A DNA stretch of 41,139 bases. Source: Nemertoderma westbladi. Taxonomy: Eukaryota > Animalia > Xenacoelomorpha. Shown here one piece after another: positions 5,444 through 30,725 of this stretch. The notes under the pieces are model-generated. The model worked only from the letters and a program-made list of their open reading frames with translations. It was not told the DNA's origin and did not search any database. Where the stretch lies: NCBI GenBank assembly GCA_032718475.1, contig JAUCBJ010008213.1, positions 1-41,139 of the forward strand, given 5' to 3'. How positions within the stretch are numbered: position 1 is the first letter of the stretch; every line of letters begins with the position of its first letter. The position numbers and the translations under genes are program-made.

Positions 5444-5547
5444 CTTGTCCGGACGAACTATTTAACGAGATTTCCCAGAATTCAGTCGTCTCCATAATTA
5501 AGACCCTCACAGAGATTAACATTGCATTTCTTCCATACGAATCGCAA
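5444..5547 (+). CDS. STXBP1: Munc18/STXBP1 coding exon 4
   Basis: CAG acceptor; (A)[34 protein letters not shown]; GTAAGT donor. Confidence 0.95.
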
Positions 5548-5782
5548 GTAAGTCTGCGCCACAACCCAAATACTAAAGTATATGTTAACAACAAAGAAGC
5601 ACCTAAATCAGTCCTAAAAGTTGCAGTGCACGCGATTAGTAAGCAGTAGTTGACTTGTCGGCACGGTAGCTCTCGCAACAAGCGGAGGTCATTTCATGCC
5701 AGAAAATGAGGCCAAAAGAGGCGACACAATAATAATGAACCTACATTATTCGGGATTAATTATGGTATATTTGCTATTTTAG

Positions 5783-5931
5783 ATATTTTCTTTGGATACA
5801 AAGGAGATGTTTCAGTCGTTCTACAGTCCCCACAAGATCAACCAACGTAGTGTCCATATCGAACGCATGGCTGAACAGATAGCCACAGTGTGTGCCACCT
5901 TGGGAGAATATCCTGCGATCAGATACAGAGC
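5783..5931 (+). CDS. STXBP1: Munc18/STXBP1 coding exon 5 (gene continues beyond, or is truncated)
   Basis: TAG acceptor; [49 protein letters not shown]; GTAAGT donor. All five exons splice in frame (569 nt). Confidence 0.95.
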
Positions 5932-5974
5932 GTAAGTCATCATTCTTAGAAATAATTAATTATATAGATTCGCT

Positions 5975-6825
5975 CGCGTTGCTCTTAAATAATAACTTAT
6001 AGAGCGCCTTTCTCCTTTCTGGACTTTATTTCAATGCGTTATAAAAGATTTCACAATAAAAAATTCACTGAATTAAAAACAAAGACAACGCAAAGCTAAT
6101 GGCGGAAATGAGGTAATAAAAAAGAGATGTTCTCTTAGAGTTAGATGACATATTCCAGTTTAAGAAGACGTGTTTTGACTTTTGAGACCCTTCTTGAAGG
6201 CATTTAATGTTGGCGTACCTCGTAGGTTGAGGGGTAGAGTGTTCCTTCCATTATTATTGTAGGAGCAGCGATGGAGAATGCCCGTTTCCCATAGTGTACA
6301 AGGTGATACCGCGGAACAGCTAGCAATCCCGCTTCACGGGATCGTAGCTGGCGAGGCGGAGGGGGGTTGTGAGGTGTCAGTAGGTCTACCGAATATGATG
6401 GTGCACAACCGTTTAATATATTTGTATGTTAGGAGAGCTATTTTGAACTGAATGCGGCGATTAATCGGAAGCCAATGCAGGTCTTTAAGGACTGGAGTAA
6501 TGTGATCTCTCTTCCTAGTACCAGCCCGCAATCGTGCCGCCGCATTCTGTACGTATTGCAATTTCTTTATAAACGTAGCTGGTAGACCATTAATAGAGGG
6601 AGTTGTTAATGTCCAGTTTGCTTGTAACTGTTAGGGCATGAATCAATATTTCGAGGTCGTGTCTTGACAAGTATATTACGTAATTGAAAAAATGAATCAC
6701 GTACTGTTGCTGCAATTTATTTAGAAAAGGTTAAGTGTGAGTCCATTACAAACCCAATATTGCGGGCATGCGCGCTAGTGACTATTGTTTCAGCACCACA
6801 CTGAACTGTCGGAGGGATGAAGGCG
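5975..6825 (-). mobile_element. 5'-truncated L2-clade LINE, degenerate ORF2 C-terminus and 3' UTR
   Basis: Translated pieces ARNIGFVMDSHLTF and LQYVQNAAARL..GTRKRDHITPVLKDLHWLPINRRIQFKIALLTYK are typical of L2 ORF2. Ends are approximate. Confidence 0.85.
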
Positions 6826-9800
6826 TCGATGTAATTGAGCGATTCTTTTCTCTGCCAAGGGTCTGTTATTTATAAATCTAGGTTCTCGTTTTCGAAATGG
6901 TAGGCCGATTTCATATCTACCTTGGTCCTTTAAAAAACGTGTAGTTGTTTCCTGGATTTGCTTGGCTCTTTCTTCTTCTATCGATAGGGCCTTATCATAT
7001 GAATTGGGCTCTACCAGTTCCTGAGTAAAGAATCGTACGGCTAGTTCGTCCCGAGTTCTAGCGTTGTAGCGCTCTATCTCATCGTTTAGTTCGTCATTGT
7101 AAGCAATGGGTTCCGATGGGCGAATCAGTTGACATAGGTTCACCTGATTTTTCCAAGTTTGGTTTTCTGTAAGTAGGTCGATTGTGTTCTCTTCATCGAA
7201 GAGTTGGTAGATGTCGTCATTATCTGAGGAGTATGGTGTTCCCTCAGTTAGTTCGTCCACCTCACTGCTCTCCACTTCCCAATCGTTTACCTGGCACACC
7301 TGCTCCTGTGGCATTCTCTCTTCGAGAGTCCTGCGAGAAGGGCCAGTAAAGTACCAACCTACTCTAGTTCTTACCGCATAGGTTTGCAGTGGCTGTGGTT
7401 GAGCAGGCCGTTTCTCCAATGTTTCGAGCGCCTCATGCGCGTTTTGGCCGATGAGTATTTGCACTCCAGGATAATCTGTCTGGAATCGAGGTATCTTAAG
7501 ATGTTGGATACTCTCATCTTCGTCCCAATTATAAAGGTCTGCCTGAGTAGTAGCGAAGTTCTTTATAGCCACCATTTTTACCGACCTTATACCTTGTGCT
7601 CCTAATTTATCCTGGGGGGTGGACAACACACCTACATAGTAATCTGCCGTTAGGGTAGATTTCCAAACCTGCATAATTCCTGACATATTCAATTTAGTCC
7701 GGAATTTGGGTTGTCCAGCAAAGATATCTTCGGCTAGTTCTTGATCGATGAATGTTCCTGTGCTGCCGGAGTCAAGGAGTGTGTTCACTATGTAACTGTG
7801 GTTAGGGCCGTGAACTCTTACCTGCACTACAGGAAATTCTCTGATTCCTACGTTGGAAGTTGGAGCTTTCCAAGATGGTTGTTTGGCAAAAGTAGTTGGG
7901 GGAAACTCATTGTTGGTGTCCTTTTCATAAGTAAGTGCTCGATACACTGCGGTATTGATTAGATAACAGGATTCGTTGGCGTCGGAGAATTCGTCAGTAT
8001 AGAATCCTTCCATCTCAGACTCCTGATCAGTGTCATTTACATCACTGAATTGGACATGTAGTTCGGGCTCACTTACCTGACTCTGTTTGTCTCGTTCGAA
8101 CTCGCTGTGTAACAAGATGTGATGTTTCGCGCCACACTTTATGTCGGAGTAACAGGTTCGCCGTTGGTGTCCTGGTCTGAGGCAATTATAGCATAACCGC
8201 TTGTCCCACACGACTGCACGTCTGTCTACAAGGGATTTCTTTAGAAATTCAGCACACGCACTCAAACGGTGGGTCCCGTCGCACAGCGCACAGTTAGGTT
8301 TTATGTTACTCACTTTACCTTGGGTAACTTGATGCACTCTCGTTTTTTCTTCGGGTTTTCTTCGGTGCATTTTGTTAGGAGACTGAGGAGGGGTCTTGGC
8401 AACCTGTTCTCTCCTATCGTTGTTTCGAGTCTTGTATTTACTTACGTCCTTTGAGGTTTTGTCAACATAGTAAGATCGATCGGTGTCTTTCCCGCTGTCC
8501 TCTTCTTGAGAAGCTTGGCTTTCGCCATCATCATTGTAACACACCGGTGTTACTCTTCTCCTAGAAGCGGGTTTCTCACTTACCTTATTTTCCGATGTTT
8601 TCTCTCTGGACTGCTTGATGAGTTGTAGTTTTACCTCACCATCTAAGAAGGACATGAGATCAGCCATGGTAGGGCTTCGTCGTTGTTGTTCATTCATGTA
8701 CAACACTTTCTTGTCCCAGCGTGTACATACTCCACCCTTGGGTAAAGTAGAGACTACGGCTCCAATAACCATGGAACTTTGATATTCATGAGACTTACCT
8801 AACCAGTCCAATTGTCTACAGATCTCCTGAATCTCATCGGAAAACTCTATAATCCCGCTACTAAGGAAGTTTCGGGGGGCTACTAATTTTGCATACAAAT
8901 ACTTAGCTATGTTATCCTTGTTACCATACCTGATGTTTAATGTATCCCAAACTTGTCTTAATCCTTCTGGATGTCCAATAAACGTTAACGCCATTAACTT
9001 GGGAGGTCCTTCCAAGCACTTTATGAGGAACCTAAGTTTCTCTCTGTTAGATAGCACAGAGTTCTGTATGCTGTCTTTGTAATATTCGTTGAAAGGTAAC
9101 CATTTCATCTCATCTCCATTGAATTTGACGATCTCTCCCACTTTGACCGCTTGGCGGGCTTCTGTTCTAGCCATCTGACGCGTAAAGCTTTCTTGGGCCA
9201 TCGTGTTATTTAATATCGAATTATCGGTATATAAATTTCTCGGATCATTGTCAGGTCTATAGGGAATATCATTAATAACAGGTCTATAATCACCCTTAAT
9301 AGGGTTTGCTATAGGAGTTTCTACTTCACTAGCAGTATAGATGCGTGTAGGCTCCACACCTTGCGCATGTAATACTTCAGACCTAACAGGTTGACACAAT
9401 GTTACAGGGGGTATTGGTATGCCCTTTTGTATATTGACTAATTTGTCGCGTTCCAGTGCGATACTTTGCTGCACTTCTTGCAATTCTGCCCTACTTTCCC
9501 TTACTGTTCCCTTAAGCTGGTGGACAGTCTCCTGCATCTGTCCGAGCAGGAGGTTCATCCCCCGCCGTCCCTCTTCTACCCACTCTACCGCCGCAGCGGG
9601 AGTCGCCAACATTGTAGCGGGCTGACGCGGGACGACGGGAGACAAGTCTTTGATTTCTCTCTCAGCTTCCAGGACAGGGATATTCTCATGGACTGTTCTA
9701 CCGGGTACAGGCAGTGTAGTACTGTGTAAAGGGAATTTAGAGTTAAGCTCTGGAAGTACAGGGGTCTCTAGCACAGAAGTGACTTTGGGAATGACAGGCC

Positions 9801-10407
9801 TAATTATTTCAGGCTCATCAACTATTGTAGGGAGTCTTTTGACCCGAATAATTTGTTCTGTGGGTTCTGTATTGCCTAAGTCTGCGCTAGTTAGTTGTCT
9901 TCTAACCGCCGGGGGCAAATTAGGCAATTTGTGGCGGTGAGATGTTTTTCTACGCCTGCTTAGACGAGATCTGTTTCCTCCGTCTTCAGGATCGGTCGTT
10001 TCGCTTTCCTCCGATGATGTGTATCCCTGGCGCTTGGGAGTAGATCGACTCCTCATCTGCATTTGACTAGCAGTTAACTGTTTATTTATGCAGTCTTGCG
10101 TCTCTTGAAGATTTTCCAACTCCAGTTGTGTGGTCTCTTCAGACGCTCTCTGTTCTGCTTCTGCCAATGCTATTGCTGCTGCTGCTTTGGCTGCTTCTAC
10201 TGTCGCTGCAGCTTTTGCTTCTGCTGCTGCCTCTGCTGCCTTTGCCGCTTCCACTGCCGCTGCCGCTTTTGCCTCTTCCACTGACGCTGCCGCTTTCGCC
10301 GCTGCTACTGCCTTTTTGTCCTCTATCCGCCTTTTCTTTACTTGTTCTTCTTGGACTCTAGCGAGGCGGAGTTTTTCATCAAATTCAGCTTGGTTAGCAG
10401 CTAACAT
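6790..10407 (-). CDS. BEL/Pao Gag-protease polyprotein, truncated just before RT
   Basis: KFNGDEMKWLPF..EKLRFLIKCLEGPPK (DUF1759-like Gag); CALCDGTHRLSAC / CYNCLRPGHQRRTC / CGAKHHILLH knuckles; LLDSGS protease; GRYEIGLPF..NRPLAEKRIAQLHRRL pre-RT motif. The last ~9 codons derive from the L2. Confidence 0.9.
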   Translation of the reverse strand: MLAANQAEFDEKLRLARVQEEQVKKRRIEDKKAVAAAKAAASVEEAKAAAAVEAAKAAEAAAEAKAAATVEAAKAAAAIALAEAEQRASEETTQLELENLQETQDCINKQLTASQMQMRSRSTPKRQGYTSSEESETTDPEDGGNRSRLSRRRKTSHRHKLPNLPPAVRRQLTSADLGNTEPTEQIIRVKRLPTIVDEPEIIRPVIPKVTSVLETPVLPELNSKFPLHSTTLPVPGRTVHENIPVLEAEREIKDLSPVVPRQPATMLATPAAAVEWVEEGRRGMNLLLGQMQETVHQLKGTVRESRAELQEVQQSIALERDKLVNIQKGIPIPPVTLCQPVRSEVLHAQGVEPTRIYTASEVETPIANPIKGDYRPVINDIPYRPDNDPRNLYTDNSILNNTMAQESFTRQMARTEARQAVKVGEIVKFNGDEMKWLPFNEYYKDSIQNSVLSNREKLRFLIKCLEGPPKLMALTFIGHPEGLRQVWDTLNIRYGNKDNIAKYLYAKLVAPRNFLSSGIIEFSDEIQEICRQLDWLGKSHEYQSSMVIGAVVSTLPKGGVCTRWDKKVLYMNEQQRRSPTMADLMSFLDGEVKLQLIKQSREKTSENKVSEKPASRRRVTPVCYNDDGESQASQEEDSGKDTDRSYYVDKTSKDVSKYKTRNNDRREQVAKTPPQSPNKMHRRKPEEKTRVHQVTQGKVSNIKPNCALCDGTHRLSACAEFLKKSLVDRRAVVWDKRLCYNCLRPGHQRRTCYSDIKCGAKHHILLHSEFERDKQSQVSEPELHVQFSDVNDTDQESEMEGFYTDEFSDANESCYLINTAVYRALTYEKDTNNEFPPTTFAKQPSWKAPTSNVGIREFPVVQVRVHGPNHSYIVNTLLDSGSTGTFIDQELAEDIFAGQPKFRTKLNMSGIMQVWKSTLTADYYVGVLSTPQDKLGAQGIRSVKMVAIKNFATTQADLYNWDEDESIQHLKIPRFQTDYPGVQILIGQNAHEALETLEKRPAQPQPLQTYAVRTRVGWYFTGPSRRTLEERMPQEQVCQVNDWEVESSEVDELTEGTPYSSDNDDIYQLFDEENTIDLLTENQTWKNQVNLCQLIRPSEPIAYNDELNDEIERYNARTRDELAVRFFTQELVEPNSYDKALSIEEERAKQIQETTTRFLKDQGRYEIGLPFRKREPRFINNRPLAEKRIAQLHRRLHPSDSSVWC

Positions 10408-10439
10408 TTCAGCATCGATTGAGTCTAACCACGCTGGGT

Positions 10440-11489
10440 TCCTTCACTATTAGGGGAAAGTCCAGACAGCCGTCTCCTCAACTCTTCGTCTCCTAGGAAT
10501 CGCTGATAGTCGGACAGATAAATGTCTATGGCGTCTCTCGTTCGTGGTCTCTCTGCGGTCTCTTCGCCTTCCACTTGAGAAAGGGTGGCATCGGTTGGTT
10601 CTTCATAGGTTAGTCTCTCAGACAGCTGGGATTTCCACTGGTCCGTTTCTTGTACTTTGAGACCTACCCGCTGGAACCAAGTTTTGACAGCAACCTGCAG
10701 CGACGTGTCCTGTCTTCTTTTGGAAGTTTCCTCAAAGGCTGATAGGATTAGTCGAATGCGTAGGGTTCTTTCGCGTACTTGATATAGCAGTTCTTCCTGC
10801 TCTTAAGGTCCTTGGGGTTGTCGAAACAGTTGTTCTTCTAATCGCTCTAAGGAGCCGAAGAATCCCGGCACATATCCTGCTGCCGACCTCTTCCAAACAG
10901 CTGGATCCATCGTATCTTTAGCCACTCCCATCCTGTGTATATCTTCCCAAGTAGCTTCGGACAAATCTAACGGGAGTCCGGGTCCGGGAAAGTTCCATTG
11001 TGACTCGACAATAGACATCAATTCTTCCCTGGCGTATCCCGCATAATTATCTTGGGTCGCTCGCTTACTTCTCGCCCAATCGGCTTGATGTTCCTCCACC
11101 GCAATCAATATAGTAGTTAGCACTGCGGCAGGAAGGGTGAGAAGGGGGTCCGAGTAGGCTTTAGCCGCCATCTGCAATCCGCGTTCGGGAGTCAGCTCTA
11201 CAGTATCCGAACTACTGGAGCTATCTGATCGCTGGGAACAAGTTTCTTGACTAGGATGTTGCTGCTGTTGGACAGCTGCTTCCTGGTTCCGCTTGACTTG
11301 GGCCCGAGTTCCGATGATAGACCTAGGGTGTTGGATTAGCTTAGGGTCTGATACTACTACTGGAGGGATGGCCTTTCTTTCAGTAGGAGGTGAGCTGAAC
11401 TCCTTTCTTAATCGCTCCACACTCCTATCTGTGTCACAGATGGTTGTATCGATTAGACTGTCTGACAGGTTTTGCTGGGTGTCAGACAT
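10440..11489 (-). pseudogene. Probable disrupted N-terminal part of the same BEL/Pao polyprotein
   Basis: The 228-aa ORF from ATG 11489 stops at 10803, but the same frame stays open afterwards (EQEELLYQVRERTLRIRLIL...RRRLSGLSP) to ~10430. A frameshift near 10445 joins it to ..WLDSIDAEMLAANQ. Confidence 0.6.
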
Positions 11490-12824
11490 GTTTAGCTATA
11501 CAGTTGAATGCTTACTGCTATAGTTACAGTTAAAGCAAGTCTAGTAATTCAGTATGACCGTGGGCCTAGTACTGGTAATTTATTGCAGTATATTAGAATA
11601 CCGGTATGCACTTATAATATATATAAGTATTGTAAACTAGTTTTGTCACAGAGTACCGGTATATAAATTTAGCACAAATATATATAAATATATAATAGGC
11701 CTATCGTGAATACCGGTATACAGCTTACACTTATAGTATATATAAGTATAATTATGGACTAGAATTAATTACCGAATACCGGTATGATTTCAGCTCAAAT
11801 TTATAGAAATAAATATAATAAGCCTATGGTAAATACCGGTATGTCAATTATTTTAGAATAATTGAATTTCTGAATATTTTAGGGTTACTTGGTTACTTTA
11901 ACTTACTTTATTACCGTTATTTAAGCAGTAGTCCAACTGATATTGAGACCTAGTTGTTGTATGGCAGGCCTACTATTTATAAATCGTTTGAGTTGATTTA
12001 TAATATATATATACCCGTTTAAAAGGGTTTTGTCAATATTTGAAATAAATGTTATTATTTCTGGGGGAGTCACTACACAGAAGCTGTGCGCTCTCAGTGA
12101 AGTGCTACCTATGGGACACTAAAACAGATAATTCTAATTTACCTAAGTTACTTAATACTACAAATTACTTACGATACGGGTGAGATTAAATCTCTAATTA
12201 AACACAACAAAAATATTACGTACGAAATTTTAGGGTAATTTTACAGGAAGTCTACAAACCAGCCTAACAAAGGGTTAGATTTCTGGTTATTACAACGGAC
12301 AGGGTACTACGGTATTTGAAAATAATAAGTAGTAGTAAATATATTGCACTGTCCAGATAGGAAAATACCACCGCCTGACGACCTATAGCCGTATCGCTAT
12401 AGGTACTACGTTATGTATCACGGAGTGTTCCTACCTGGAAGTTAATTACCGCGGACTACCAGATCCAACGTGCCTATTAACCACTTTACAACACAAATAT
12501 ACTGCCTACACTAATTACCCTCGGAAAGCACTGTACACTAAACCCTAAATTAGGTACAAGTACTGGTACAACAAATAATCAGTAGTTAAATATACTTGAA
12601 CAGTTAAAAGAACCACGGCATCTGCTGGAGTGACCGAAGCACAAAGTCACCAGTCTTTTCCTACGCCAAGCAGCCCGTGTAGTACCGGGGTTAATTTAAC
12701 TATAACGGTATGTGTAACAAGCACAATTACTGTAGGAATAAACTTGGGGACATGAATGTTGCGAATAATTGCATAAACTCTGAATAATAAATATTACGCT
12801 ACCCGTACAGAATACTCAAACAAA

Positions 12825-15717: not shown

Positions 15718-17000
15718 TAGGGCTTAGAAACTGACAGATTCTTCGCGAATTTCGCAAACATCGTGAAATGCGTGATTTCGCAAACATCGGGAACTTTTCT
15801 ACATTGTTGACTACAATGTACAATGCAAAAGGGTCCCAAATGAGTTTTTTAATCTTTATTTTTTTTGTGTTTTTGAGAGCTTTTTTATTTTGATGAATGT
15901 TCTAGAACCTTAGTAGGCCTAGATATTTTTTTGTGGTAGCTAGTGTTATTTTTTAACTAGCTAGTATTTCAAGAAAATAATATTGTTTTTGAGTGCTTTT
16001 TTTATATTAGTGAATGTTCTACAACCTTAGTAGATTTGATATGGTAGATAGTGATTTTTTCTAGCTAGTAATTTTTGAAAATTATTTGGTCAATAATATA
16101 TTTTTTAACAGTTAAACAGGAAATATCATGCTTTCACATTTTTTTATAATTTCAAATAATACTATCTAGCAAAAAACACTAGCTATGATAAAAAGCATAT
16201 CAACTAATGTTCTAGGGTATTAGTATGCCTGTGACCCCACTTTTTGATGAAAAAAACTAACTAGATAGTCTATTTAGATAGAGTCTAACTAAACTGAAAA
16301 AAACTAACTAGATAGAATGATCTATTGCGATGTTCCAGAATGTTATTTGACAGTTGCCATGGTTACCATTTTGGAGAAAAAAGGCGTTTTAAGAATGTTA
16401 GTTTTGAAAATTTATACACCTGTTACCTGTTACAGAATCATCTCGCTGAATTTTGGTGGCGAAATTACAACAGGGAGGCCCCATTCAGCAAACTGATAAC
16501 ACTAATAAACAATAGCGAATTATAGAAATCTGTTTAATTCAGTTCAAAAACAAAAAACTAATCAATTTACATTGTTATATTCATTAAATAACATATTCGA
16601 TGAACCTTCAATAAATCATTATTTACAACACTTGGTTACCATAGCAACACATGAAAAATGTTACAGAATGTAGAACTTGAGTGGGGCAAACATAATACCA
16701 ACATATGTAGCTAGTATATCATAAATTACTAGCTAGTTTTTTCATCAAAAAGTGGGGTCACAGGCCATACTAATACCTGTTCTAGAACATTCACCAATAC
16801 CAAAACAATTAACAAACTCTAAAAAAAAGGTCTGGTGAAAAAATGGCTGGGGGGGGGGGGCGACAGGGCGAAGTAGGGACCCTTTTGCTTAAGGAGTGTC
16901 CATTTTACATAACATAAAATTCCCTTCCGACGTTTGCAAAATTCGGTAATTTCGTGACGTTTTCGAAATTCGCGAAGAATCCGTCTGTTTCTGTGCCCCA
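15718..17000. mobile_element. Non-autonomous DNA transposon with diverged ~120-bp TIRs
   Basis: TAGGGCTTAGAAACTGACAGATTCTTCGCGAATTTCGCAAAC at 15718 versus reverse complement TGGGGCACAGAAACAGACGGATTCTTCGCGAATTTCGAAAAC at 17000. No clear TSD. Confidence 0.75.
16216..16777. mobile_element. MITE (562 bp) with ~50-bp TIRs and 8-bp TSD, possibly Merlin-like, nested in the previous element
   Basis: TIR GGTATTAGTATG(G)CCTGTGACCCCACTTTTTGATGAAAAAA at both ends; TGTTCTAG duplicated at 16208-16215 and 16778-16785. Confidence 0.85.
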
Positions 17001-17399
17001 CTCTAACTGTCGGGGAAAACGTTGGATAAATATTTTATATATAATAATATTGCATTTGAATGGAAATACACAATGCTATCTTGTGTAAAATTAGAAGAAA
17101 GTGATCAAAGATAGGCAACAGTAACAAACACATTGAGGAATAATATCATTTGTGTAATAATTGATTAGAGTTTTATGGTCTTCGAAGTTACAATATACCA
17201 AATTAATTGCACTGCACCTTTACTTTAATAGGCCCACAGTACTACATAGCAGATACACTGAAAAAAGATAAACAGGCCAAACAAGAAAGAAAAGGCTAAC
17301 AAACAGTATAACAATATAAGCAATATAACACCAAAATATATCTCTAACCAAACTGACAAAAAAAAATACAAAAAATTTCAAAAGGGAATAAAGGAAAAA

Positions 17400-18502
17400 A
17401 AATATAAAAATAACCCACAGATATTAGTTATGTATTATTATGTAGCCAGATCCAAAAAATACCTAGATAATTATATTTTGTGCATTTCTTAGTTTTGTTA
17501 CTTCGAAACTATATCGAGCTAGCTTGATTAATTTGTCCTTGTTATTTCTAGTCATAATTGGTTGGTTGGGGTATTGGTGAAGAATCTTTCTATGTATTTA
17601 TTCCTAAGATCTCTAAAATATAAGCACTCAAGTAAAAAGTGGTATTCGTCCTCCACGCACCCTTTGCTACAAAGTTGGTATAAACGTTGATCGCGGGGAA
17701 TATTGTACCATCATCGGCCAATTTCAATTAATAAATTGTGTGAGCTACACCTAAAGCGACTTAAAACCCTACGAAGAGCAATGTGTTTATCGAAGTGATC
17801 AAAGTAAATTTCAAGATCGAAAGTATATTTACTATACAAATTCCATTTCGGTGAAAGATTAATAGATCCCCACCAAGATCGAATATATTGATCTTTAATC
17901 CTAGTTTGTACCTCGTTCAAAAATATACGTTCATTGCTAAACATACTCTTCTTCCCAAACATTAGAGAAACCTAAAGAGTCTAATAGTTGTTTCGTCCAT
18001 AATGCCCAGATTGAACAATTTGTTGAGTTAATAAGGTCTGATTGTCTTAGACAGTCATACAAGACTTTAGAAGTCTGTAGGTCGGAAGTTTAAGTATTTT
18101 TAACCAGTACTTCTTAATGATAATCAATTTTCGAACACAGTGGAAGAGTACCTGTTTCCCCAAAAACCATGAAGTTGGGCGGTGAAGTCTTGACAACAAG
18201 AAAGTATTTTAAGAATTTCAGATTTACTCGTTCTACTGACTATGCCTTGTGAATCCCCATATCACGCTTCCATAAAGTAGTATAGGTTAATTATAGAGTT
18301 GTAATGATATAAAACGATATCAAATGAAATGTGTGGTAAAGAGATAAAAAAATTTAATAGGGAAAAATAAGCTTTCTCGCCTTTGGATTGTGCTACAGAA
18401 AATTTCCCACTACTTGTAAAATAATCCCTAAATAGTTGTACTGGTTTACTATTTCAACTGGAGTACCATTAAAAATCCACATTAAATTACGAGGAATTTG
18501 AC
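17400..18502 (-). mobile_element. 3' part of a degenerate APE-RT LINE (RT thumb to C-terminal Cys/His motif)
   Basis: ..IPRNLMWIFNGTPVEIVNQYNYLG.., LSRFRCSSHNLLIEIGR, CVEDEYHFLLEC. Continuous with 25682 onward once the transposon is removed. Left boundary approximate. Confidence 0.85.
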
Positions 18503-18564
18503 TATGGCATACTTTTAGTATTTTTATTCGACATTTTATTTCCCCTTGATATTCTTCTGAATTT

Positions 18565-20010
18565 AGTCGCGAGATAAATGATTAAACTCGCGAGAAAATA
18601 ATTAATCTCGCGAGATAAATGATTAAACACGCGAGAAAATAATTAATCTCGCGAGATAAATGATTAAACACGCGAGAAAATAATTAATCTCGCGAGATAA
18701 ATGATTAAACTCGCGAGAAAATAATTAATCTCGCGAGATAAATGATTAAACTCGCGAGAAAATAATTAATCTCGCGAGATAAATGATTAAACTCGCGAGA
18801 AAATAATTAATCTCGCGAGATAAATGATTAAACTCGCGAGAAAATAATTAATCTCGCGAGATAAATGATTAAACTCGCGAGAAAATAATTAATCTCGCGA
18901 GATAAATGATTAAACTCGCGAGAAAATAATTAATCTCGCGAGATAAATGATTAAACTCGCGAGATAAATGATTAATCTCGCGAGAAAATAATTAATCTCG
19001 CGAGATAAATGATTAAACTCGCGAGAAAATAATTAATCTCGCGAGATAAATGATTAAACACGCGAGAAAATAATTAATCTCGCGAGATAAATGATTCAAC
19101 TCGCGAGAAAATAATTAATCTCGCGAGATAAATGATTAAACTCGCGAGAAAATAATTAATCTCGCGAGATAATTGATTAAACTCGCGAGAAAATAATTAA
19201 TCTCGCGAGATAAATGATTAAACTCGCGAGAAAATAATTAATCTCGCGAGAAAATAATTAATCTCGCGAGATAAATGATTAAACTCGCGAGAAAATAATT
19301 AATCTCGCGAGATAAATGATTAAACTCGCGAGAAAATAATTAATCTCGCGAGATAAATGATTAAACTCGCGAGAAAATAATTAATCTCGCGAGATAAATG
19401 ATTAAACTCGCGAGAAAATAATTAATCTCGCGAGATAAATGATTAAACTCGCGAGAAAATAATTAATCTCGCGAGATAAATGATTAAACTCGCGAGAAAA
19501 TAATTAATCTCGCGAGATAAATGATTAAACTCGCGAGATAGATGATTAATCTCGCGAGAAAATAATTAATCTCGCGAGATAAATGATTAAACTCGCGAGA
19601 AAATAATTAATTTCGCGAGATAAATGATTAAACACGCGAGAAAATAATTAATCGCGCGAGATAAATGATTCAACTCGCGAGAAAATAATTAATCTCGCGA
19701 GATAAATGATTAAACTCGCGAGAAAATAATTAATCTCGCGAGATAAATGATTAAACTCGCGAGAAAATAATTAATCTCACGAGAAAATAATTAATCTCGC
19801 GAGATAAATGATTAAACTCGCGAGAAAATAATTAAACTCGCGAGAAAATAATTAATCTCGCGAGAAAATAATTAATCTCGCGAGATAAATGATTAAACTC
19901 GCGAGAAAATAATTAATCTCGCGAGATAAATGATTAAACTCGCGAGAAAATAATTAATCTCGCGAGATAAATGATTAAACTCGCGAGAAAAATACACATC
20001 TCGCGAAAAA
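18565..20010 (+). repeat. Left subterminal array: 41-bp dimer (21+20 bp), roughly 70 CTCGCGAG monomers
   Basis: [CTCGCGAGATAAATGATTAAA CTCGCGAGAAAATAATTAAT]n; count estimated as length/20.5. Confidence 0.97.
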
Positions 20011-20110
20011 AATCGCGATTGGCTGTTAATTGGGACAGTAGGAAACGGCCATCCAATAGCAGCAGAGGAAATACCCTTATAGGTGCAATAGGGATATATA
20101 TAATAGGTAT
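20011..20110 (+). promoter_or_regulatory. Putative promoter of transposon ORF2: two opposed CCAAT boxes plus TATA-like sequence
   Basis: ATTGG 20018-20022, CATCCAAT 20050-20057, TATATATAA ~20095; layout mirrored at the other end of the element. Confidence 0.45.
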
Positions 20111-20794
20111 TAAATAGGCCTTCTTTCTATATCATTCATTTCAGCATACCGTAACATTATCTCTGCCTCCTGTCTGTATTAAGGGGCGTCGTGTCGAGTT
20201 TAGGGTAGCATGTTTGTTTATACAAGCCAGAGTTGCAATATTGTATTTGTACTTTGGTACAATAGCCGCTCGGCGCGGCGGTCCCTATTCTGGACTGAAT
20301 TTTTGTTTAGCAGTAGTCAGATGCATGATTTCTACTTAATGTGATTCTTTTAAATTCAATAAAAATTAATAATTCAACAAACCATTAAATTGATGTACTA
20401 TATTAAGTGTTACAGTTTATAATTAGCGCCCATACGCCCATGTGAAGAATACCAGGATTTCACTTTTCGGACGACCTTTTATTGGAATTTTATATTAAGA
20501 TTTTTAATTTTTTTTAAATTTATCTTTAATAAATGTTTTATATGCGTTTATTTCTGTCTTATAACCTGTACATACATATACTATTTCGTTTATTGTTTTG
20601 GTTAAATTCAGCCCTTCTGTAACCTGTGTTTTTGGTCAAAACCTGGTATTCTTTACATGGGGGGTAACCGCAAAGTGAAATATAACGGCAGAAAGTCTGG
20701 TATTCTTCACATGGGCCATTATTAGTATTATGCTGTTGATACGTTGGCTGAATTGGGCCAAAATTAATTATATTATGAATGGGAGAATCTTTTA

Positions 20795-21030
20795 GGCTCG
20801 TTAAGCGGTGTGGTCTCGTTACGGCTAATGTCTCGTTACGGCTAATTTTATGAGAGATTAGCCGTAACGCGACTTTCAAAGTCGCGGTACGGCTACTCTA
20901 AAAGTCGCGTTGCGGCTAATTGTCGCGTTACGGCTAATTGTCGCGTTACAGCTAAATTTTTGAGAGATTAGCCGTAACGCGACTTTCCGTAATGCGACAT
21001 TAGCCGTACTGCCACTGCGCCCGTTAAGCC
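20795..21030. repeat. Small foldback/MITE-like module of GTTACGGCTAAT repeats in both orientations
   Basis: CGTTACGGCTAAT-like units forward at ~20817, 20835 and 20885-20955; ATTAGCCGTAACGCGAC reverse at ~20857 and 20967, with ATTAGCCGTA at ~20999. Confidence 0.7.
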
Positions 21031-21223
21031 AAGGAATAATGCCTGTTCACCACCACATGTAAGTCACCATTTCATTCTAATAATTAATTTTGGAATTCAG
21101 CCACCGTATGTAGAAAGCCTACATACTTTACAATATAAAACATTTATTAGGAAAATATTATTGACAGATTGCATTTGTAGCTTGAAAAAATATTTGACAA
21201 TTTCCCGCCGTCAATGCAGAACT

Positions 21224-22492
21224 ATGATCTGCCAGAATTGCAGTAAAACTCTTAGTGCTGAGGATAAGTTTTGTTCACATTGTGGCACCAGTTGCGATAT
21301 TGCTTCAGTTCCTAGTTCAAATAGGCGTGAGTTAATAGCTGAACTAAATCGTCAATTTGCACCATATGCATCGGTTCCAACTGGGTCAGTAAGCCGACGA
21401 CGAATAACTCCATCTCGTGCACGTCTTTCTTCTCCCCGTGGAAGGCCAGCAGCAACGACTTTCAGTAAGGCAATGGTTGTAGTACGTGGGAAGCATTATA
21501 AAGATGAATTAATTACTATCAAACATTCTAACATAGTGAAGCATTGCATGCTCGATTTCTGTAGCATAGATACAGCTGAGGAAATTAGAAACAAAATCAT
21601 ATCTGTGCTTGAAACTCACCCGAGTTGCATTACTGAGTTTACTTATGTAAAGGCCCCCAACAGGGTAGTTACTCCCATATGTGTTAGCGAGAATTTCAAG
21701 TTTAATGGTGATGCCATTTCTTGTCTGTTTCCAGCGAAAAGAGCAATTTATGTTCAACTTAAAGAAGTTGATACTCTTGAAGAGGAAGATAGTCCATTTT
21801 CTACTTTGGATTTACCGTCTTTTATGAGCCCCAATGTGACTGGTGGAAATATTCAATCGGGCAATGTCATTGAACAAAGCACCGAAAGCTCAGGTATACA
21901 TGTAGGAATGCTGCAGGCTTGGGATGGGAGAGACATTCTTGAAGCTAGCCCGGATGATGTAATTGATTCCGATGTCGAGGTTATAGAAGAAGATTCTGTT
22001 GTTAAACAATATGATGTCAAGAAAATGACAAAATTTACTACTACAGAATTAAAGGAGATTGGTAAAGTCCAGATTCTTTATGATTACGATACATTATCCC
22101 CGAACTATGTAGAACCAAGCCAGTTACAAGACATATCAATACGCCGTACATCTGCTTTACAGGATTTAATACGGAAGATTGAAAAGATAGATATAACTCA
22201 GGGGATTATGGTTCACTACTACGATGAGTCTGGATGTGACAATGGAGGTCTCAGGCGAGATATGTTTAGTACGGTTATTGGAGCCTTGCTGAACTCGTCA
22301 ATGTTCCTAACAATTGATGATTACATTGTGCCTGCATTAGTAGATGTTGTTAAGGTGTCGAATGGGAGTTTTAAAGCAGTCGGTAAAATTATTGGTAGCA
22401 TTCTTCTACACGGCGAACAGTTGCTTAGCATCCTGCATCCTATTGTGAGCAGGTATATTGTGTTCGACGCAAATCCCATCTTGGCGAATTAA
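21224..22492 (+). CDS. Transposon ORF2: N-terminal zinc ribbon, central globular domain, acidic linker, N-terminal part of a HECT E3-ligase-like domain (no C-lobe)
   Basis: First ATG at 21224: MICQNC..DKFCSHCG. ISIRRTSALQD..IMVHYYDESGCDNGGLRRDMFS..FKAVGKIIGSILLHG resembles the HECT N-lobe signature (V.F.GE.G.D.GG..RE.F). Stop at 22490-22492. Confidence 0.75.
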   Translation: MICQNCSKTLSAEDKFCSHCGTSCDIASVPSSNRRELIAELNRQFAPYASVPTGSVSRRRITPSRARLSSPRGRPAATTFSKAMVVVRGKHYKDELITIKHSNIVKHCMLDFCSIDTAEEIRNKIISVLETHPSCITEFTYVKAPNRVVTPICVSENFKFNGDAISCLFPAKRAIYVQLKEVDTLEEEDSPFSTLDLPSFMSPNVTGGNIQSGNVIEQSTESSGIHVGMLQAWDGRDILEASPDDVIDSDVEVIEEDSVVKQYDVKKMTKFTTTELKEIGKVQILYDYDTLSPNYVEPSQLQDISIRRTSALQDLIRKIEKIDITQGIMVHYYDESGCDNGGLRRDMFSTVIGALLNSSMFLTIDDYIVPALVDVVKVSNGSFKAVGKIIGSILLHGEQLLSILHPIVSRYIVFDANPILAN

Positions 22493-22675
22493 TATCCCGC
22501 CTCAATGTTTAATTCTCAATTTAGGGAAAGGAGCAGGTTACAGTGGCACGTTATTTTAACCAAAACAATAAACTAAACACAATAGAACAGGTTACAGTGT
22601 CATTTTTGAGAGTAATCAGCTGTTATTTGCGTCGAATTTCCCCTGGAGAGGGATAAATTTTTATTGCGTCCAGTT

Positions 22676-22702
22676 CCCCCCCCCCCCCCCCCCCCCCCCC
22701 CC
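22676..22702. repeat. C27 homopolymer between the convergent ORFs
   Basis: Direct read. Confidence 0.95.
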
Positions 22703-22774
22703 TATCTGAACTTTTCTTAGGTTCTCGCATTATTATAAAGAAAATGGAAAGAAAATAAGGAGAACAATTATTGT

Positions 22775-24413
22775 TCAGTTAGAATCAAGAATTGTATTAT
22801 TAACCACAAATTCCTTGCAATATAGGTAGCAGTCAAGGCCATTGTTATGGTTATTACCATTGTTGTCAAACAGTTCTGCAATTTCGCCCAGTAAACGTTG
22901 TTCAGCTTCTACAGATAGGGGAATATTGATGGGTCACACCAACAACAGATTGTTGTTCGTCCACTACAGGACCCTCCCAGTCTATTCCATAATTACTTAC
23001 TTCACCTGGCTCGTCCTCTATGGAGGTATCTTGAAGTCGACTATTTACGAAAATCTTTCGCGGAGTCCAGTAGTGTTCAGTGCGCAAACCGTGATTATTC
23101 CACCCAATAACGAATTCATTCAGTGCTGTATTGATGCGCTGCTTGAATGCCGTATGTAAACAATATATGTCATGAACATTTGAGGGGTCTAAATATTGAT
23201 TATCTTCAAGCCAGTGAAACAGTTTATAGTACACAATAATAACCGTTCGAAAAACATCCCTCCATAAACGTTCGATTCGTTGGTTGTGTGTACTTCTACC
23301 AGCTATGAAACTTCCCCGGTTTGTACCTCGACGATTTATCATATACTCTGCAACACTTCTGTTTTCACCTCCTTTGTCTCCCCTAACTCTAGAGGGCAAA
23401 CCATATTTATCAACAGCCTCTAGAAACAGAGGCAACACTGTCGATGCACAATTGTTACCAGACATTTGTAAGTAAGTAATTAGTCTAGAATGTCCATCAA
23501 TTCCGCCATGCAGGACTAAATTCCATCGTATGAGACTATGGTGTCCATCTATATGCCAAAGTGAGTTGGCCGCCTTTACGCTGTACTTTCGACGAAAGAC
23601 AAGCGCTCCCCATCTAGATGCGGATGAAATTGGATCTACCTCCTTAAGGATTCTATGAACAGCATTTAGTCCAGCAAATACATTTCTGCTACGAAGTATC
23701 GAGTTAACAAATCTACACCCAGCATAAGGGTATTGTTGGTGAATTTCTCCAATTATTCGTTTTAAATCTTCTTCATTAGTGTCGTGATAACGACGACGCA
23801 CACCCAGTTCATATTCTCGCACTCGATCCATTATTGTCGATCTGCTTACACCATACATTTTTGAAATCTGGGTCCATCTAAATCCACTTTCATGTAAGAA
23901 CGTGAGGATTTCCTTTGATATATCAAATTTCGGTCTACCACATCTTGACTCTAGATGAGTATCGATCGAGTTAATAGTTGGTACTTGTACAGCGGCAGTA
24001 GCTAAGGTTGTGCAACACGGACTAACTGGTATGGGAGTAGCTATTACTGTCTCTGAAAGTTTATTCAGATAAGTTAGATAATTCTCTCCTGCAGTATTAT
24101 TGTTAGGCGCATTTAGCCCATTTATAATGGTTAAACTATGTGAACAGTTCTCCAGTCTCGCTAATAAATGTTCCTTTAAATCTTGATGCAAGCGCATAGA
24201 ACTCGAATCAGTACTGTTCTCGATAAAGCGTTCGCATTCTTTAATTACGTCTTCCAAATGGTTCACAAAGAATTCGACGGGATCGTTTCCACCATCCATA
24301 ACAGTTAACTGTATTAGTAGGCCTAATAGTTCTGAATTAGTGTTTCTATAGACCTCACATGAAACAGCAGTAGCAGTGGCCAGTAAAATATACAACAAGT
24401 GATACGAATACAT
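22775..24413 (-). CDS. DDE transposase (rve integrase-core, IS3/IS481-like) with HTH; probable frameshift near 22935 in the C-terminus
   Basis: [25 protein letters not shown] (HTH); catalytic [25 protein letters not shown]. The called ORF ends at 22902, but a shifted frame continues [28 protein letters not shown] to 22775. Alternative start at ATG 24299. Confidence 0.9.
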
Positions 24414-24469
24414 GCTTTTCTTACGATAAAATATAACATAATAGATTCAATTATGCTGAAATGGCGTTG

Positions 24470-24560
24470 TAATCGCTTTTAAATATAGCCCTTACTTAAA
24501 TAACTATTGTGATTGGATGTTTGTTTCGTGTTGTCATAGAGAGCGCCAATCACGATTGTT
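24470..24560 (-). promoter_or_regulatory. Putative transposase promoter: two opposed CCAAT boxes plus TATA-like sequence
   Basis: Minus strand ATTGG 24550-24546, CATCCAAT 24519-24512, TATATTTAAAAG ~24487-24476, 60-70 bp upstream of the ORF. Confidence 0.55.
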
Positions 24561-25619
24561 CTCGTGAGATTATTTATTTATCTCGCGAGATTAATTATTT
24601 TCTCGCGAGTTTAATCATTTATCTCACGAGATTAATCATTTATCTCGCGAGATTAATTATTTTCTCGCGAGTTTAATCATTTATCTCGCGAGATTAATTA
24701 TTTTCTCGCGAGTTTAATCATTTATCTCGCGAGATTAATTATTTTCTCGCGAGTTTAATCATTTATCTCTCGAGATTAATTATTTTCTCGCGAGTTTAAT
24801 CATTTATCTCGCGAGTTTAATCATTTATCTCGCGAGATTAATCATTTATCTCGCGAGTTTAATCATTTATCTCGCGAGATTAATTATTTTCTCGCGAGTT
24901 TAATCATTTATCTCGCGAGATTAATCATTTATCTCGCGAGATTAATTATTTTCTCGTGAGATTAATTATTTTCTCGCGAGTTTAATCATTTATCTCGCGA
25001 GATTAATTATTTTCTCGCGAGTTTAATCATTTATCTCGCGAGATTAATTATTTTCTCGCGAGTTTAATCATTTATCTCTCGAGATTAATTATTTTCTCGC
25101 GAGTTTAATCATTTATCTCGCGAGTTTAATCATTTATCTCGCGAGATTAATTATTTTCTCGCGAGTTTAATCATTTATCTCGCGAGATTAATTATTTTCT
25201 CGCGAGTTTAATCATTTATCTCGCGAGATTAATTATTTTCTCGCGAGTTTAATCATTTATCTCTCGAGATTAATTATTTTCTCGCGAGTTTAATCATTTA
25301 TCTCGCGAGTTTAATCATTTATCTCGCGAGATTAATTATTTTCTCGCGAGTTTAATCATTTATCTCGCGAGATTAATTATTTTCTCGCGAGTTTAATCAT
25401 TTATCTCGCGAGATTAATTATTTTCTCGCGAGTTTAATCATTTATCTCGCGAGATTAATTATTTTCTCGCGAGTTTAATCATTTATCTCGCGAGATTAAT
25501 TATTTTCTCGCGAGTTTAATCATTTATCTCGCGAGATTAATTATTTTCTCGCGAGTTTAATCATTTATCTCGCGAGATTAATTATTTTCTCGCGTGTTTA
25601 ATCATTTATCTCGCGACTA
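24560..25619 (-). repeat. Right subterminal array, inverted relative to the left, roughly 50 monomers
   Basis: [CTCGCGAGATTAATTATTTT CTCGCGAGTTTAATCATTTAT]n is the reverse complement of the left unit. Confidence 0.97.
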
Positions 25620-25681
25620 AATTCAGAAGAATATCAAGGGGGAAATAAAATGTCGAATAAAAATACTAAAAGTATGCCATA

Positions 25682-28600
25682 TTTGACCACCTTTTCTAAA
25701 AACAACTATTTTAGACTTATATTATCTAGGTTAACATTTAGACCCCAAAATTCACAATATGATTCTAGAACGCTGATTGAACTTTGTAAACGTTTGGGAA
25801 TTCTAAAATAAGGGGTTCTAAAATAACAATGTCATCAGCGTATAGTAGAAGAAACAGACGCACGTGATAAATAGTGATACCCTGTATCCCACTCCCACTA
25901 TTACGTAATTCGGACTCCAGGTCATTAACAATCAAGTTGAACAATAGCGGAGACAGACAGTCTCCTTGTCTGACTCCTATCAGACATTCGAAAGAACCAG
26001 ACAGTTTTCCAGCACTACGGCCGCACCATTTAATGCTACTGTATATAATACTTTTTATCAATTTAACTATTTTTCCTGAAAACCCGAGACCTGACAGTTT
26101 CATCCACAAAGCCGTCTAACAAAGGCATGATCTATATCTGATTTAATCACAAATATTTGATATGCGGTAACTGTAAACTGAATCTGAAACCAGCCTGACT
26201 TTCAATAAGCACACCAAAACAATCCGTCCAAAATGTTAATCTGTTATAAACACCAAATAATTTTTAAAACATACAACAATTTTTAATTTATAAAACATCA
26301 ATTCGATGTCAGAAGTTTGCCAATAGTGCTTAACATCGTGACTCCCCGGTACTTCCCTGGGTCTAATCTCGAGCCTTTATTTTTATATAATGGGGAAATA
26401 ATACCTACTGACCAGGCTGAAGGAAAACAACCGGTAAATAGCACTGCATTGAATAATAATGTGATAATCGGTACCAACTGGTTTTATCCCTCAATGAAAA
26501 ATTCTGAAATAAGACCATCCTCATCTGGGGCCTTAGTAGTATAGGTTTGCTCCTCTCCTATACTACTAGCCTTACCTCGTTTCATATTACCAATTGCTTC
26601 CGATATTTCATCTTCCACAAGTGGCTGTGAGACATGAATCGAAAAAGAGTTTACTTTCGGCTAAATCTATTCCTGTGTCTCCTGATGGTACAAAACCGAT
26701 GTATTCAAATTTATTCCCACTATTGGATTTACTAAATTTTTTAAAATATTTTTCAAACTCCGAGAGTTACAGGAGAGAGGTGGTTTCACTTTTCTTCTGT
26801 AGATCATTTAATTTTCGCCAGTATCTTTTAGAGTTAGTAGTTTTATAATAATTTCTTAAGCAATTAACTTGATCCTCCAAAAACGGATATCTAGTCCACC
26901 GCTGCGCCGCTTTATACTCTTTACGTTTTGTTTGTACAAGTACAGTAGATTCTACCGTTTGCCTAATGTTGTTCGACTTTCGAGCACTATTAAAAGATAA
27001 TTTCGCTTTCCTGCATTCATCATTAAACCCAATTGCACCAGGTAAAATATTTGCATCACCCTGACAATTAGAGCACGAAAAGTTATTTTCTGCGACATCT
27101 ATGATTGTTTTACATAAAATATCAGATGCGCGTGTTACAGTATTTCCAGAAATATCACCCTCACAAAGTAGGTTGGTAATTTAATTAAATCTTAATTGCA
27201 CCGAATTTGATTCTAGAGATTGCCTAAAAGCATCGGCATGGTTAGGATGCCAAACGTATCGTTTATTAATGGGACTTCATCATCATAGGCAATGTAATCA
27301 AGTAGATTAGCTGTTCTAGAATTCAAATCATCAACTAATAAAATATCAGCATTGCCTATATAGGAAGCAATTCCTTTCTCAATTATATCAAACATTGACG
27401 CTGTGTCTCCACTATAACTAGTCGAAGACTCCGGTGGGATGTAAACACAACATATAAATACATCATTAGGTAAACCTAGAGAACTACTAATTTTAATCCA
27501 ACATAAGTCCTCAGTATGGGTTTGTTGTTTTGGCACAGATAAAAATAATTTGTGAGAAAATCACGGTAATAAATCATCACAGCCCCACTATACCGCTTAG
27601 CATTTGGGTGTTTGTATTTCCTATAAATATTTATAGGTTCCACAAATCCTTCGATTTCAATATTTATCATTGAGTTTGGACCTAGAAAGGTCTAATTACA
27701 TATAAAAAAAATCATATTTCTGGATGAGAGAGTGAATATCTGGTCTTTCCACATTTAAGTGTCCAACTCGCAGAGTCTTGATCTGTGACTATGGGATTTA
27801 ACCCACTCCTTGTTGGAATCAGTCAGTTGGTGAGGGTACATGTCCAGGCGGGTAATGGGTCCCCTGAGTATTCTTGACCTTCCACTCAGCAGACCCACCC
27901 GCGGTTTCTCGTTGAAATACTATCATGTTGTTATAATTAGTTTGATCACCTATTCCACCATTTTGACCTCGGCCACTACCCCTAATTCCTGTTCCGATTG
28001 TAGTTGTACCTTAAAACCCGCTGTTATATACCCAAGTGGTACTCTGATGATCAGCCTTGTAGATAGAGCTGCTGTTTGTCGGTATAGTTTCAGCTCCTGC
28101 ATATTGAATACCATTTCTATTTGTTCAAATGCTCGATTCTTTCCTCTGATATTGACTGGGGTCGTAGGAATTCGTTGATAAGTTCTGTAGTTAAGTCCAT
28201 ATTTGTTATGAAGGGTCGGGGAGGGAAGTCGATCTTTATTTATGGGTTCACAGTTGTGATAATTAAAGACAAAGCGATGTAGTCCTCTTCTCCCTGTTGA
28301 CACAATATTCCACACAGATGCTTGCTTTGATTTGGTGTATTTCTCGCGCGGGGGAATTTCCTCGTAAGGATCGTCTTCCCATCATCCAGATCCATTCCTA
28401 AGTATGATTTAAACATAATCCTCTTCGTTTGTCACCTTAGGTACTGTTGCATCTCTTGTTGGCTGGACTAGAGCAGAACCGCAATCGCGAGATAAATCAT
28501 TTAGCTCAGAGTTAGCATCAATACCGATTCCGTTTGGTCCAAATATATATTCTCCATTTCCCCCTTCTGGTTAAAGGAGGAGGAGGAGTACCTGTTCTTG

Positions 28601-29600
28601 TGATCATTGTTAAATCTACTATCGTCATAGGTTGAGTTATGGTTACTGGAACCATACCCAGAACTTGGTGATCCCAGACTCGGTCCAAAGCCTGGGGGAT
28701 ATCTCCTCAAGTAGTGACCAGCATCATCAACTTCCTGTTGATGTTGAGTTGGAACCCATATATTAAGCTGATGTAGATCCTTATCCAGAGTAATATCCAA
28801 TTCGTTACTGATATCCCAACCTGAGACAGGAACATTATATATCTTCAAAATCGATCCTCGTATTTCTGTATGTAGCCCGATCAAAGTCGCCTCTAGCTAG
28901 TCTAAATAGGGAATTTCTTTGCACAGTCAATTCAGCTAGAAAGTTGTCCAAGATCTTATATTACGTTCCAATGAGCCTCTCTTTCCTATCGAGAATATAG
29001 AACTTGTCAGAGATGCAGAGGAATTCAACTCTCACAGGTCTAGTTTTGCTCCTTTTGAATTTACCTTGCCAGGAAACTCTTTCAATCTGAAGATCCCCAC
29101 TACTTCCAAGGGATGTATTGAATAAGTCATACTCAGCATCCTCCAAGCTTCTGTATCGTGATTCGTTGAGGTTTAAAATTATAATGTTGTGTCGAGATGA
29201 TTGACGTTGTTGTTGGACCTGTCGCATCAGCAGAAGTTCCACCTTCTCTTCAATCCGATTGCACCTATCTTCCAGTCTCTCATTTTCTCGTTTGAGTCCA
29301 GCCAGACGATCGCCATGATCATCTCTCAAAGTTTTGAGACCCACCACAATGATTGGCATCAACATAATATTGTCGAGGTGTTCTTGGGTGAAAGTACCAG
29401 CAGTACTGTTGATGGCACTCCGTTCACTACAACTGCTAACACGCGTTCGCTTCTTGTTGTTCCGACTGGTTGACCCATCGATCGCGCCGTTATTATTTGT
29501 TTCATCATCTTCCGCCATTCCATTCCATACAAAAAGATCTGTCTTGTTTGGTTCATCCTTGTTTGAGACAGCTACTCCTGCGGCCCCTTGTCGTTTTCAG
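25682..29600 (-). mobile_element. 5' part of the same degenerate LINE (ORF1, APE endonuclease, RT); RTEX/Crack-like, clade uncertain
   Basis: RT: GVRQGDCLSPLLFNL..LLYADDIV (25765-26109). APE: RYSGAVMIYYR, ICCVYIPPESS, LVDDLNSRT (27213-27670). ORF1: coiled coil plus RRM-like RHNIIILNLNE..KTRPVRVEF (28961-29518). Many stops and frameshifts. Confidence 0.85.
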
Positions 29601-30161: not shown

Positions 30162-30648
30162 TTACGCGTCATTATCACAAGCGTAATCGCAACATTGTCC
30201 AAAAACGCAATCAAACCGATCTGCATAACATCCCTCTACATATAATTGTCGTGGACATTCAGATCGAAATGTGTCACGGTCATAAGAGCATGCATATCCA
30301 TAAGAAGTTGAATCTGTCCTAGGATCTGGAATAACATCCTTGTAAGTGCTTATACTTTCATCATAGTCACAACATTTTTCACAGTACCAACACCATTCTT
30401 CAACTGTACTAAAGGTTATTTGTGATGTCCCTTTTAATTTTTTCTTATAACTAGAACAGTTTGGGAATTTATCTGTTAGAATACTTGGGTCTGGGCAATT
30501 TATTGGGCAGGAGCAGCAACCTTGTCGATATTCTATGGGTTTCGATGCAGAGATAGTTGGAGTAAATATCATCACGAACAGTATGGCTTTTCTGACGATA
30601 TAACGTGTCATTGTGGCATCATTGTAATTTAACATCACTGGCATTGTT
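30162..30648 (-). CDS. Putative secreted cysteine-rich protein (16 Cys), main exon; family unrecognised
   Basis: From ATG 30611: signal-peptide-like MTRYIVRKAILFVMIFTPTISA, then a ~127-aa mature region with 16 Cys. Polypyrimidine/TAG acceptor at 30649; AATAAA at 30017-30012. Confidence 0.7.
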
Positions 30649-30725
30649 CTATGGGAAAACAAAAATAATGTAATAGGAACAAAAATAGGCTTAATATTAA
30701 AAAAAAATTAATTTAATTTATCTAC

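Follow-up and report, generated by a model that had tools for sequence, protein, structure and literature searches.

Palindrome arrays at the inverted ends of an IS3EU/GingerRoot transposon

The two arrays of CGCG palindromes described here make up the subterminal portions of the inverted ends in a DNA transposon of the IS3EU/GingerRoot superfamily, of which the element is a new member. In the window, that is, the whole 41,139-nt stretch of DNA analysed, the transposon spans 7,179 bp (18503-25681), with TTTGAC on both sides as a 6-bp target site duplication (18497-18502 on the left and 25682-25687 on the right, both plus strand). The left terminal inverted repeat tip (18503-18564, plus strand) begins with the IS3EU-type end TATGG, the right tip (25619-25681, minus strand) ends with CCATA, and the two tips are identical except for one extra C. 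The arrays lie 62-63 bp from the termini, one at each end and inverted relative to each other. The palindromes plausibly act as multiplied transposase sites, their match to the motif of the vertebrate promoter factor BANP being probably incidental; we put the chance that this reading is right at about even.

The TAYGG...CCRTA termini (TA...TA; here TATGG at 18503 and CCATA ending at 25681), the 6-bp duplication of TTTGAC, the integrase-like DDE core and the two opposite genes agree with IS3EU/GingerRoot elements as described in the available text of PMC10045372, PMC12730594 and PMC6839031. The same text gives terminal inverted repeats of >30 bp for fungal IS3EU and of 100-150 bp for GingerRoot, whereas the inverted ends in the window exceed 1 kb owing to the arrays. 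Subterminal arrays are not described in the accessible parts of these three papers, and Repbase reports or supplements may already contain them. The structure and function of IS3EU elements have been called largely unexplored (PMC11934779, available part). The present copy adds a clean new member to IS3EU, a superfamily in which ends built from repeat arrays are a family-wide trait. The terminal inverted repeats of this copy are made up of tandem subterminal repeats that can fold into secondary structure, as in type 2 foldback elements.

The flanks of the element read as two pieces of a single decayed LINE reverse-transcriptase region, which lies on the minus strand. This LINE, with ORF1-like, endonuclease-like and reverse-transcriptase pieces, extends over 17555-18502 and 25682-29596 (minus strand) and was split by the IS3EU insertion. 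Rfam gave no match over window positions 17000-27000. The tip pattern matched six viral contigs, and a relative was encoded in none of 18 candidate stretches of viral contigs.

Genes of the element

Both genes point inward. The IS3EU-type DDE transposase, with a helix-turn-helix (HTH) domain and an integrase core, is encoded on the minus strand (22902-24413; PF24764, E 1.6e-78), and 1934 homologues were found among 5588 candidates. It is an integrase-like DDD/E transposase without HHCC, and its core motifs LWHIDG...HGGIDG...DKGGEN, followed by a motif of 10 residues, are by eye common to the IS3EU proteins IS3EU-1_CVi and IS3EU-1_SK. The last ~40 codons of this copy are in another frame; at the site of the frame change, contigs of sequencing runs X2 and X3 differ, and those of run X1 do not. 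A PDB search with the HTH domain gave nothing better than E 0.09.

ORF1 (21224-22492, plus strand) encodes a zinc ribbon, a conserved middle domain and the first part of a G2E3-like HECT N-lobe, and terminates where a nested high-copy repeat begins. The middle domain is common to the second gene of a relative (pairwise E 2e-5). For the HECT start, the best PDB match had E 4e-4 and all 19 matches were HECT ligases; in the Atlas, the first match was 0.92, with HECT in 47% of members. The second gene of this element is a broken HECT-like gene. No ORF1 homologue was found among 5118 candidates from longer proteins.

In the two-gene CACTA and Harbinger transposons, DNA binding involves a separate partner protein, and the arrays might similarly be bound by the second-gene product (zinc ribbon, middle domain and HECT-like part), or else be a sink for a host factor. 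Complete relatives do carry a homologous second gene arranged as in the window. However, ORF1 revealed no DNA-binding family besides the zinc ribbon, no BEN domain was present in the 8 + 17 frames scanned, and the sink, or factor sponge, gained support from none of the tests made. We consider both versions very improbable.

Composition and spacing of the arrays

The left array (18565-20008, plus strand) contains 71 cores in 41-bp dimers of 21- and 20-bp monomers, and the right array (24560-25618, minus strand) contains 52 cores in an inverted copy of the same 41-bp unit. TRF reported a period of 41, 34.8 copies and 96% matches for the left array, in which the core-to-core spacing averages 20.49 bp. 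Its cores comprise 33 exact TCTCGCGAGA, 29 ACTCGCGAGA and 9 variants, consistent with the sequence-only reading, in which one monomer of the dimer carried the former and the other the latter. That reading had also placed the palindrome in each monomer and had described a regular alternation of 21 and 20 bp. The first statement holds for most left-array cores and is slightly overstated, since CTCGCGAG is retained in 62 of 71; the alternation does run along the array, but it is interrupted at ~5 places (units 20-21, 34, 48-49, 60 and 63-64). The spacers are nearly pure A/T, as had been noted (AAATAATTAA all A/T; TAAATGATTAA 10 of 11).

In the right array, 20 cores are exact TCTCGCGAGA, 24 have the ACTC form and 44 contain CTCGCGAG. 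Both arrays together hold 123 cores, in line with the earlier count of roughly 120 sites. They include 53 exact TCTCGCGAGA and 53 ACTCGCGAGA; CTCGCGAG is present in 106 and CGCG is intact in 116. Outside the arrays, CTCGCGAG does not occur in the window (0.11 expected). CpG-type changes were seen in four cores (left unit 60 and right units 33, 49 and 52), which suggests that the arrays may sometimes be methylated.

The difference between 71 and 52 cores means that array copy number is not fixed. Unequal copy numbers and variants specific to each end would also be expected if nothing beyond the tip, and possibly a few cores next to it, mattered, the rest being a minisatellite that amplifies itself through hairpins, slippage and exchange between ends. 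The array has a strong single-strand hairpin tendency (z -9.2 against 200 shuffles), in keeping with such a process, but the retention of CGCG in 116 of the 123 cores speaks against it. We regard this explanation as unlikely, also in view of the relatives described below.

The mean period of 20.5 bp had been taken as about two helical turns. Arithmetically this is so (1.95 turns at 10.5 bp per turn), with a drift of 17.5 degrees per unit, so that only near neighbours would share a face of the helix; the sites remain in phase along the array only at ~10.25 bp per turn.

End arrays of related elements

Relatives were taken from two sources: metagenome loci, of which the best 80 of 518 confirmed were used, and genome contigs, which supplied 20 loci. 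They are 35-63% identical to the window transposase in the best segment, and a single assembly accounts for many of them. In seven, the transposase is flanked by both ends and a perfect 6-bp duplication. Nine complete or near-complete elements served to build an end profile, which recovered 40 ends; with three added by hand these formed 22 groups. One end per group was examined, and four of these 22 (L040, L054, L065 and L071) may be false termini.

An array was detected by autocorrelation in 14 of the 22 ends, with fundamental periods of 8, 13, 14, 15, 19, 20, 20, 21, 21, 22, 22, 24, 30 and 33 bp, and TRF found weaker arrays in three further ends. The eight ends that fail by autocorrelation would suit a self-amplifying minisatellite; the recurrence of arrays in a subterminal position at both ends in many families argues against it. 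Eight of the 14 periods fall within 19-24 bp. When the 14 arrays were compared with helical repeats of 10.2, 10.5 and 11 bp in a circular test with a uniform null, the mean cosine was 0.24-0.39 (p 0.06-0.16), against 0.19-0.23 for 51 background repeats, a control that is not clean as it includes ~7 probable IS3EU ends on truncated contigs. As a trait of the family, helical phasing did not reach significance. These 51 other tandem repeats of the related loci likewise peak at 20-21 bp, which is compatible with a minisatellite origin of the period.

The units of the related arrays are unrelated to the window's unit. Their commonest cores are of the TCGAT/CGAT type, and GGCGCGC, ACGCGCTCAG, GGCGGTG, AATTCC and ATTCA were also found. 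CTCGCGAG was absent from the 925,465 bases around the 100 related transposases (1.4 expected by chance); in this set, which is distant throughout and includes no ends of the window's clade, the motif is not conserved. The nearest approaches to the window's core were a TCTCGCA array at the edge of L011 and one 8/10 match ahead of the L084 transposase. These comparisons indicate that end arrays are a family trait and, since the related units differ and CTCGCGAG is missing around them, that the BANP-like core is particular to the window's family. The sequence-only reading had itself named unrelated cores in related elements as an outcome that would refute it, and the same two observations speak against the proposal that the core is a site for BANP or a similar host factor.

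Within a single assembly (WLWD01 contigs), eight end families carry several unrelated cores, for example GATCGAT, GGCGGTG, AATTCC and GGCGCGC, which argues against one host factor. In a quick tree of the window transposase and its relatives, built without Repbase rows or an outgroup and restricted to loci whose best segment spans query residues 200-400, the window transposase groups with P0001 and bivalve proteins. In two loci of the window's clade, L001 and L006, neither a terminus nor an array was seen upstream; a host factor confined to the window's lineage may therefore still act on the arrays.

The core appears to track roughly the transposase clade and the recognition helix, with exceptions and with shared ancestry as a confounder. 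Most TCGAT/CGATT-type arrays belong to one 19-row transposase clade, and the two TTCAA-type arrays (L012 and L045) share a clade and the helix VSRWT. The window's helix, VSRSTIMDR, differs from those of 20 related loci, the helices having been taken from alignments in which 3 of 23 loci were lacking or partial. Among the exceptions, L068 and L053 belong to the TCGAT clade yet carry other cores, and the nearly identical helices of L005 and L070 go with different cores.

Several observations were made on individual loci. L011:1-169 is a ATCTCGCA/TTTTTATCTCG array upstream of a related transposase, the closest among the relatives to the window's half-site. L084 is a complete element with an intron-split second gene. 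Loci L081-L100 include contigs labelled as bacterial or archaeal metagenome-assembled genomes (MAGs) that carry eukaryote-type IS3EU transposases, probably host DNA binned into MAGs. Five phage contigs that matched the array pattern (L101-L105) are unrelated to the element; their G+C-rich, 11-bp-spaced CTCGCGAG repeats are presumably iteron-like.

BANP motif, promoter-like boxes and CpG content

The statement that TCTCGCGAGA is a methylation-sensitive promoter motif bound by BANP in vertebrates is confirmed by the available text of 10.1101/2021.11.03.467208, PMC10206803 and PMC11472053. According to these sources, as far as accessible, TCTCGCGAGA motifs close to start sites are bound by BANP in mouse, human and zebrafish (10.1101/2021.11.03.467208, citing Grand et al. 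2021), and the full-length protein is an oligomer whose oligomerisation is required to reject methylated CGCG sites (PMC11472053). In the available part of 10.64898/2026.05.04.722487, BANP, like NFYA, is a promoter factor that opens chromatin, and an inserted BANP motif shifts the start site in mouse cells. As in vertebrate CpG-island promoters, the window combines an identical 10-mer (53 of 123 cores), adjoining CCAAT and TATA-like boxes and a gene downstream. It differs from them in that a promoter in human, mouse or zebrafish has one or a few known sites, whereas here there are dozens, with A/T-rich spacers, in an invertebrate transposon.

The boxes lie just inward of the arrays, where the two ends are still alignable over ~130 bases. 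The diverged inner part of the left end (20009-20124, plus strand) faces ORF1 and contains a reverse CCAAT at ~20018-20022, a CCAAT at 20053-20057 and a TATA-like box at ~20095-20103. That of the right end (24440-24559, minus strand) precedes the transposase start, with CCAAT boxes at 24546-24550 and 24512-24516 and a TATA-like box at 24476-24487, ~65-135 bp ahead of the first in-frame ATG. Both inner ends thus have a promoter-like, putatively functional layout: each retains a reverse CCAAT followed ~35 bp inward by a forward CCAAT, and a TATA-like box (GATTGGC...CATCCAAT plus the TATA-like box), and the sequence in between has diverged. In two relatives, L034 and L061, the transposase frame opens directly behind the array.

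CpG content was compared between each related subterminal end and the transposase gene of the same element. The CpG observed/expected ratio was higher at the end in 17 of 22 cases (median 1.26 vs 0.58; Wilcoxon p 0.0008, with families that are not independent), and in all seven elements with a perfect duplication the excess was present at both ends. It may also be noted that the ends of the 22 related groups (L002-L084) are CpG-rich within CpG-poor loci, most often with a TCGAT/CGAT core. The persistence of CpG-rich arrays in such loci is a further point against a self-amplifying minisatellite, and the CpG enrichment of IS3EU ends offers a testable route to methylation control.

From these features one could argue that the element amplified a host promoter motif and that a BANP-like BEN-domain factor, together with NF-Y, opens both ends, each driving one gene. 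An exact match over 10 bp to a widely known promoter motif, adjoining the CCAAT and TATA-like boxes of a predicted promoter, would fit this, as would the retention of those boxes at both inner ends amid diverged sequence, the frames that open directly behind arrays in L034 and L061, the CpG-rich ends of the relatives (17 of 22 ends; all seven validated elements) and the near match ahead of the L084 transposase start. A weak hint that the animal host is a deuterostome invertebrate, from the Munc18-1/STXBP1-like exons of the window, points the same way. The 53 ACTCGCGAGA cores need not count against it alongside the 53 exact TCTCGCGAGA, since the BEN domain of BANP contacts the inner TC in the accessible part of PMC10206803, and the ACTC form is therefore compatible.

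We nevertheless regard this host-factor reading as rather unlikely. Full cores are absent from the 100 related loci. The two inner ends are homologous, so that their CCAAT arrangement counts as one event and not two, and four cores bear CpG-type changes. The cores of other families also resemble motifs of known factors (we take ATCGAT to resemble a CUX/DRE motif and GGAATTTTC a Rel motif), so that matching one well-known motif or another is no rare event.

Nothing relevant on BANP or its motif in invertebrate promoters or transposon ends was present in the accessible portions of the literature searched, and the subject is unmentioned in the available text of PMC4773876, PMC13317027 and PMC11618098. 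The idea that the motif had been reported in Amphimedon promoters was dropped, as neither Clus1 nor CGCGAG had a match in the available text of PMC4773876. If a BANP-like factor did act here, the transposon would have built an artificial CpG island by amplifying a chromatin-opening motif of its host, and BANP-type regulation would extend to an invertebrate. A broader version, in which IS3EU ends are generally CpG-island-like through amplified, family-swapped CpG motifs and the BANP motif was captured here, so that a kilobase of sites for an invertebrate BANP-like factor, together with neighbouring NF-Y and TATA elements, would keep the two ends free of methylation and drive both genes, seems to us doubtful.

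Candidate role of the palindromes in transposition

The sequence-only reading had offered three roles for the sites: recruitment of a host BEN-domain factor that keeps the element open and expressed, a factor sponge, or binding of the transposase HTH. The first has indirect support from the boxes inward of both arrays and from the CpG-rich ends of relatives. Among the three, transposase sites appear to fit the comparative data best, given the position of the arrays at both ends, their variable number, the unrelated cores within one assembly and the tracking of core with clade and helix. The HTH of the element's transposase would bind the palindrome as a dimer, and the palindromes may help to load and pair both transposon ends. 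Additional core copies would raise transposase occupancy, by analogy with Muta1, and copy number would drift through slippage or unequal exchange. Each gene begins directly inward of an array, with CCAAT and TATA-like boxes in front of it, so that array occupancy might also influence transcription of the element itself; CpG methylation of the cores could serve the host as an off switch.

Muta1, a MULE of Aedes aegypti, is a type 2 foldback element whose terminal inverted repeat likewise consists of a terminal motif and tandem subterminal repeats in variable number; more subterminal repeats lead to more transposase binding, cleavage and excision (PMC5499845, available text). It belongs to another transposase superfamily and has nine copies of a 12-bp repeat, against 71 and 52 palindromic cores here. 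Binding has been demonstrated for Muta1, whereas for the window arrays it is putative.

The transposase site may also be the tip alone. The ~26-bp tip is better conserved between families than the arrays, partly by construction of the profile, and contigs of runs X1, X2 and X4 share the tip and then continue into different inner sequence. A 1004-bp contig of run X4, probably one record met twice in view of equal length and depth, has just 269 bases between the left inner region and a right tip. Such a contig would be in keeping with arrays that are largely minisatellite.

Nested repeats and read depth

Three nested MITE-like repeats, all very high-copy, interrupt the element. The first has approximate limits of 20433-20717 (strand unassigned), drawn from loose ends and depth. 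The second (20806-21038, likewise without strand) has 17/18-bp units at inverted positions, and contigs join 20805 to 21038. The third (22466-22702, no strand given) ends in a C run and interrupts ORF1.

Summed contig depth, which is no copy number, was 72-3414 in the tip bin, 29-362 in the interior in runs X1-X3 outside the nested repeats and 31-35 in the flank in X1 and X2, with no flank depth in X3 or X4. These values hint at many ends and few full elements. Run X3 does not cover 17052-18431, a segment covered by X2 from the same sample.

Other features of the window

A cysteine-rich frame of 181 aa with a hydrophobic N-terminal stretch and without a Pfam family lies at 30165-30707 (minus strand). 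A BEL/Pao-like retroelement gag-protease frame, with DUF1759 and a weak aspartyl protease, was found at 6790-11495 (minus strand). At 4600-5932 (plus strand), at least four exons of a Munc18-1/STXBP1-like gene are followed by a BEL/Pao-like insertion. A homologue search with one of these exons found none. Two of the exons gave better scores with STXBP1 chains (61.6 and 66.2 bits) than with S-Sec1 (48.8 and 55.8 bits, respectively); we take these chains to be from mammal and squid.
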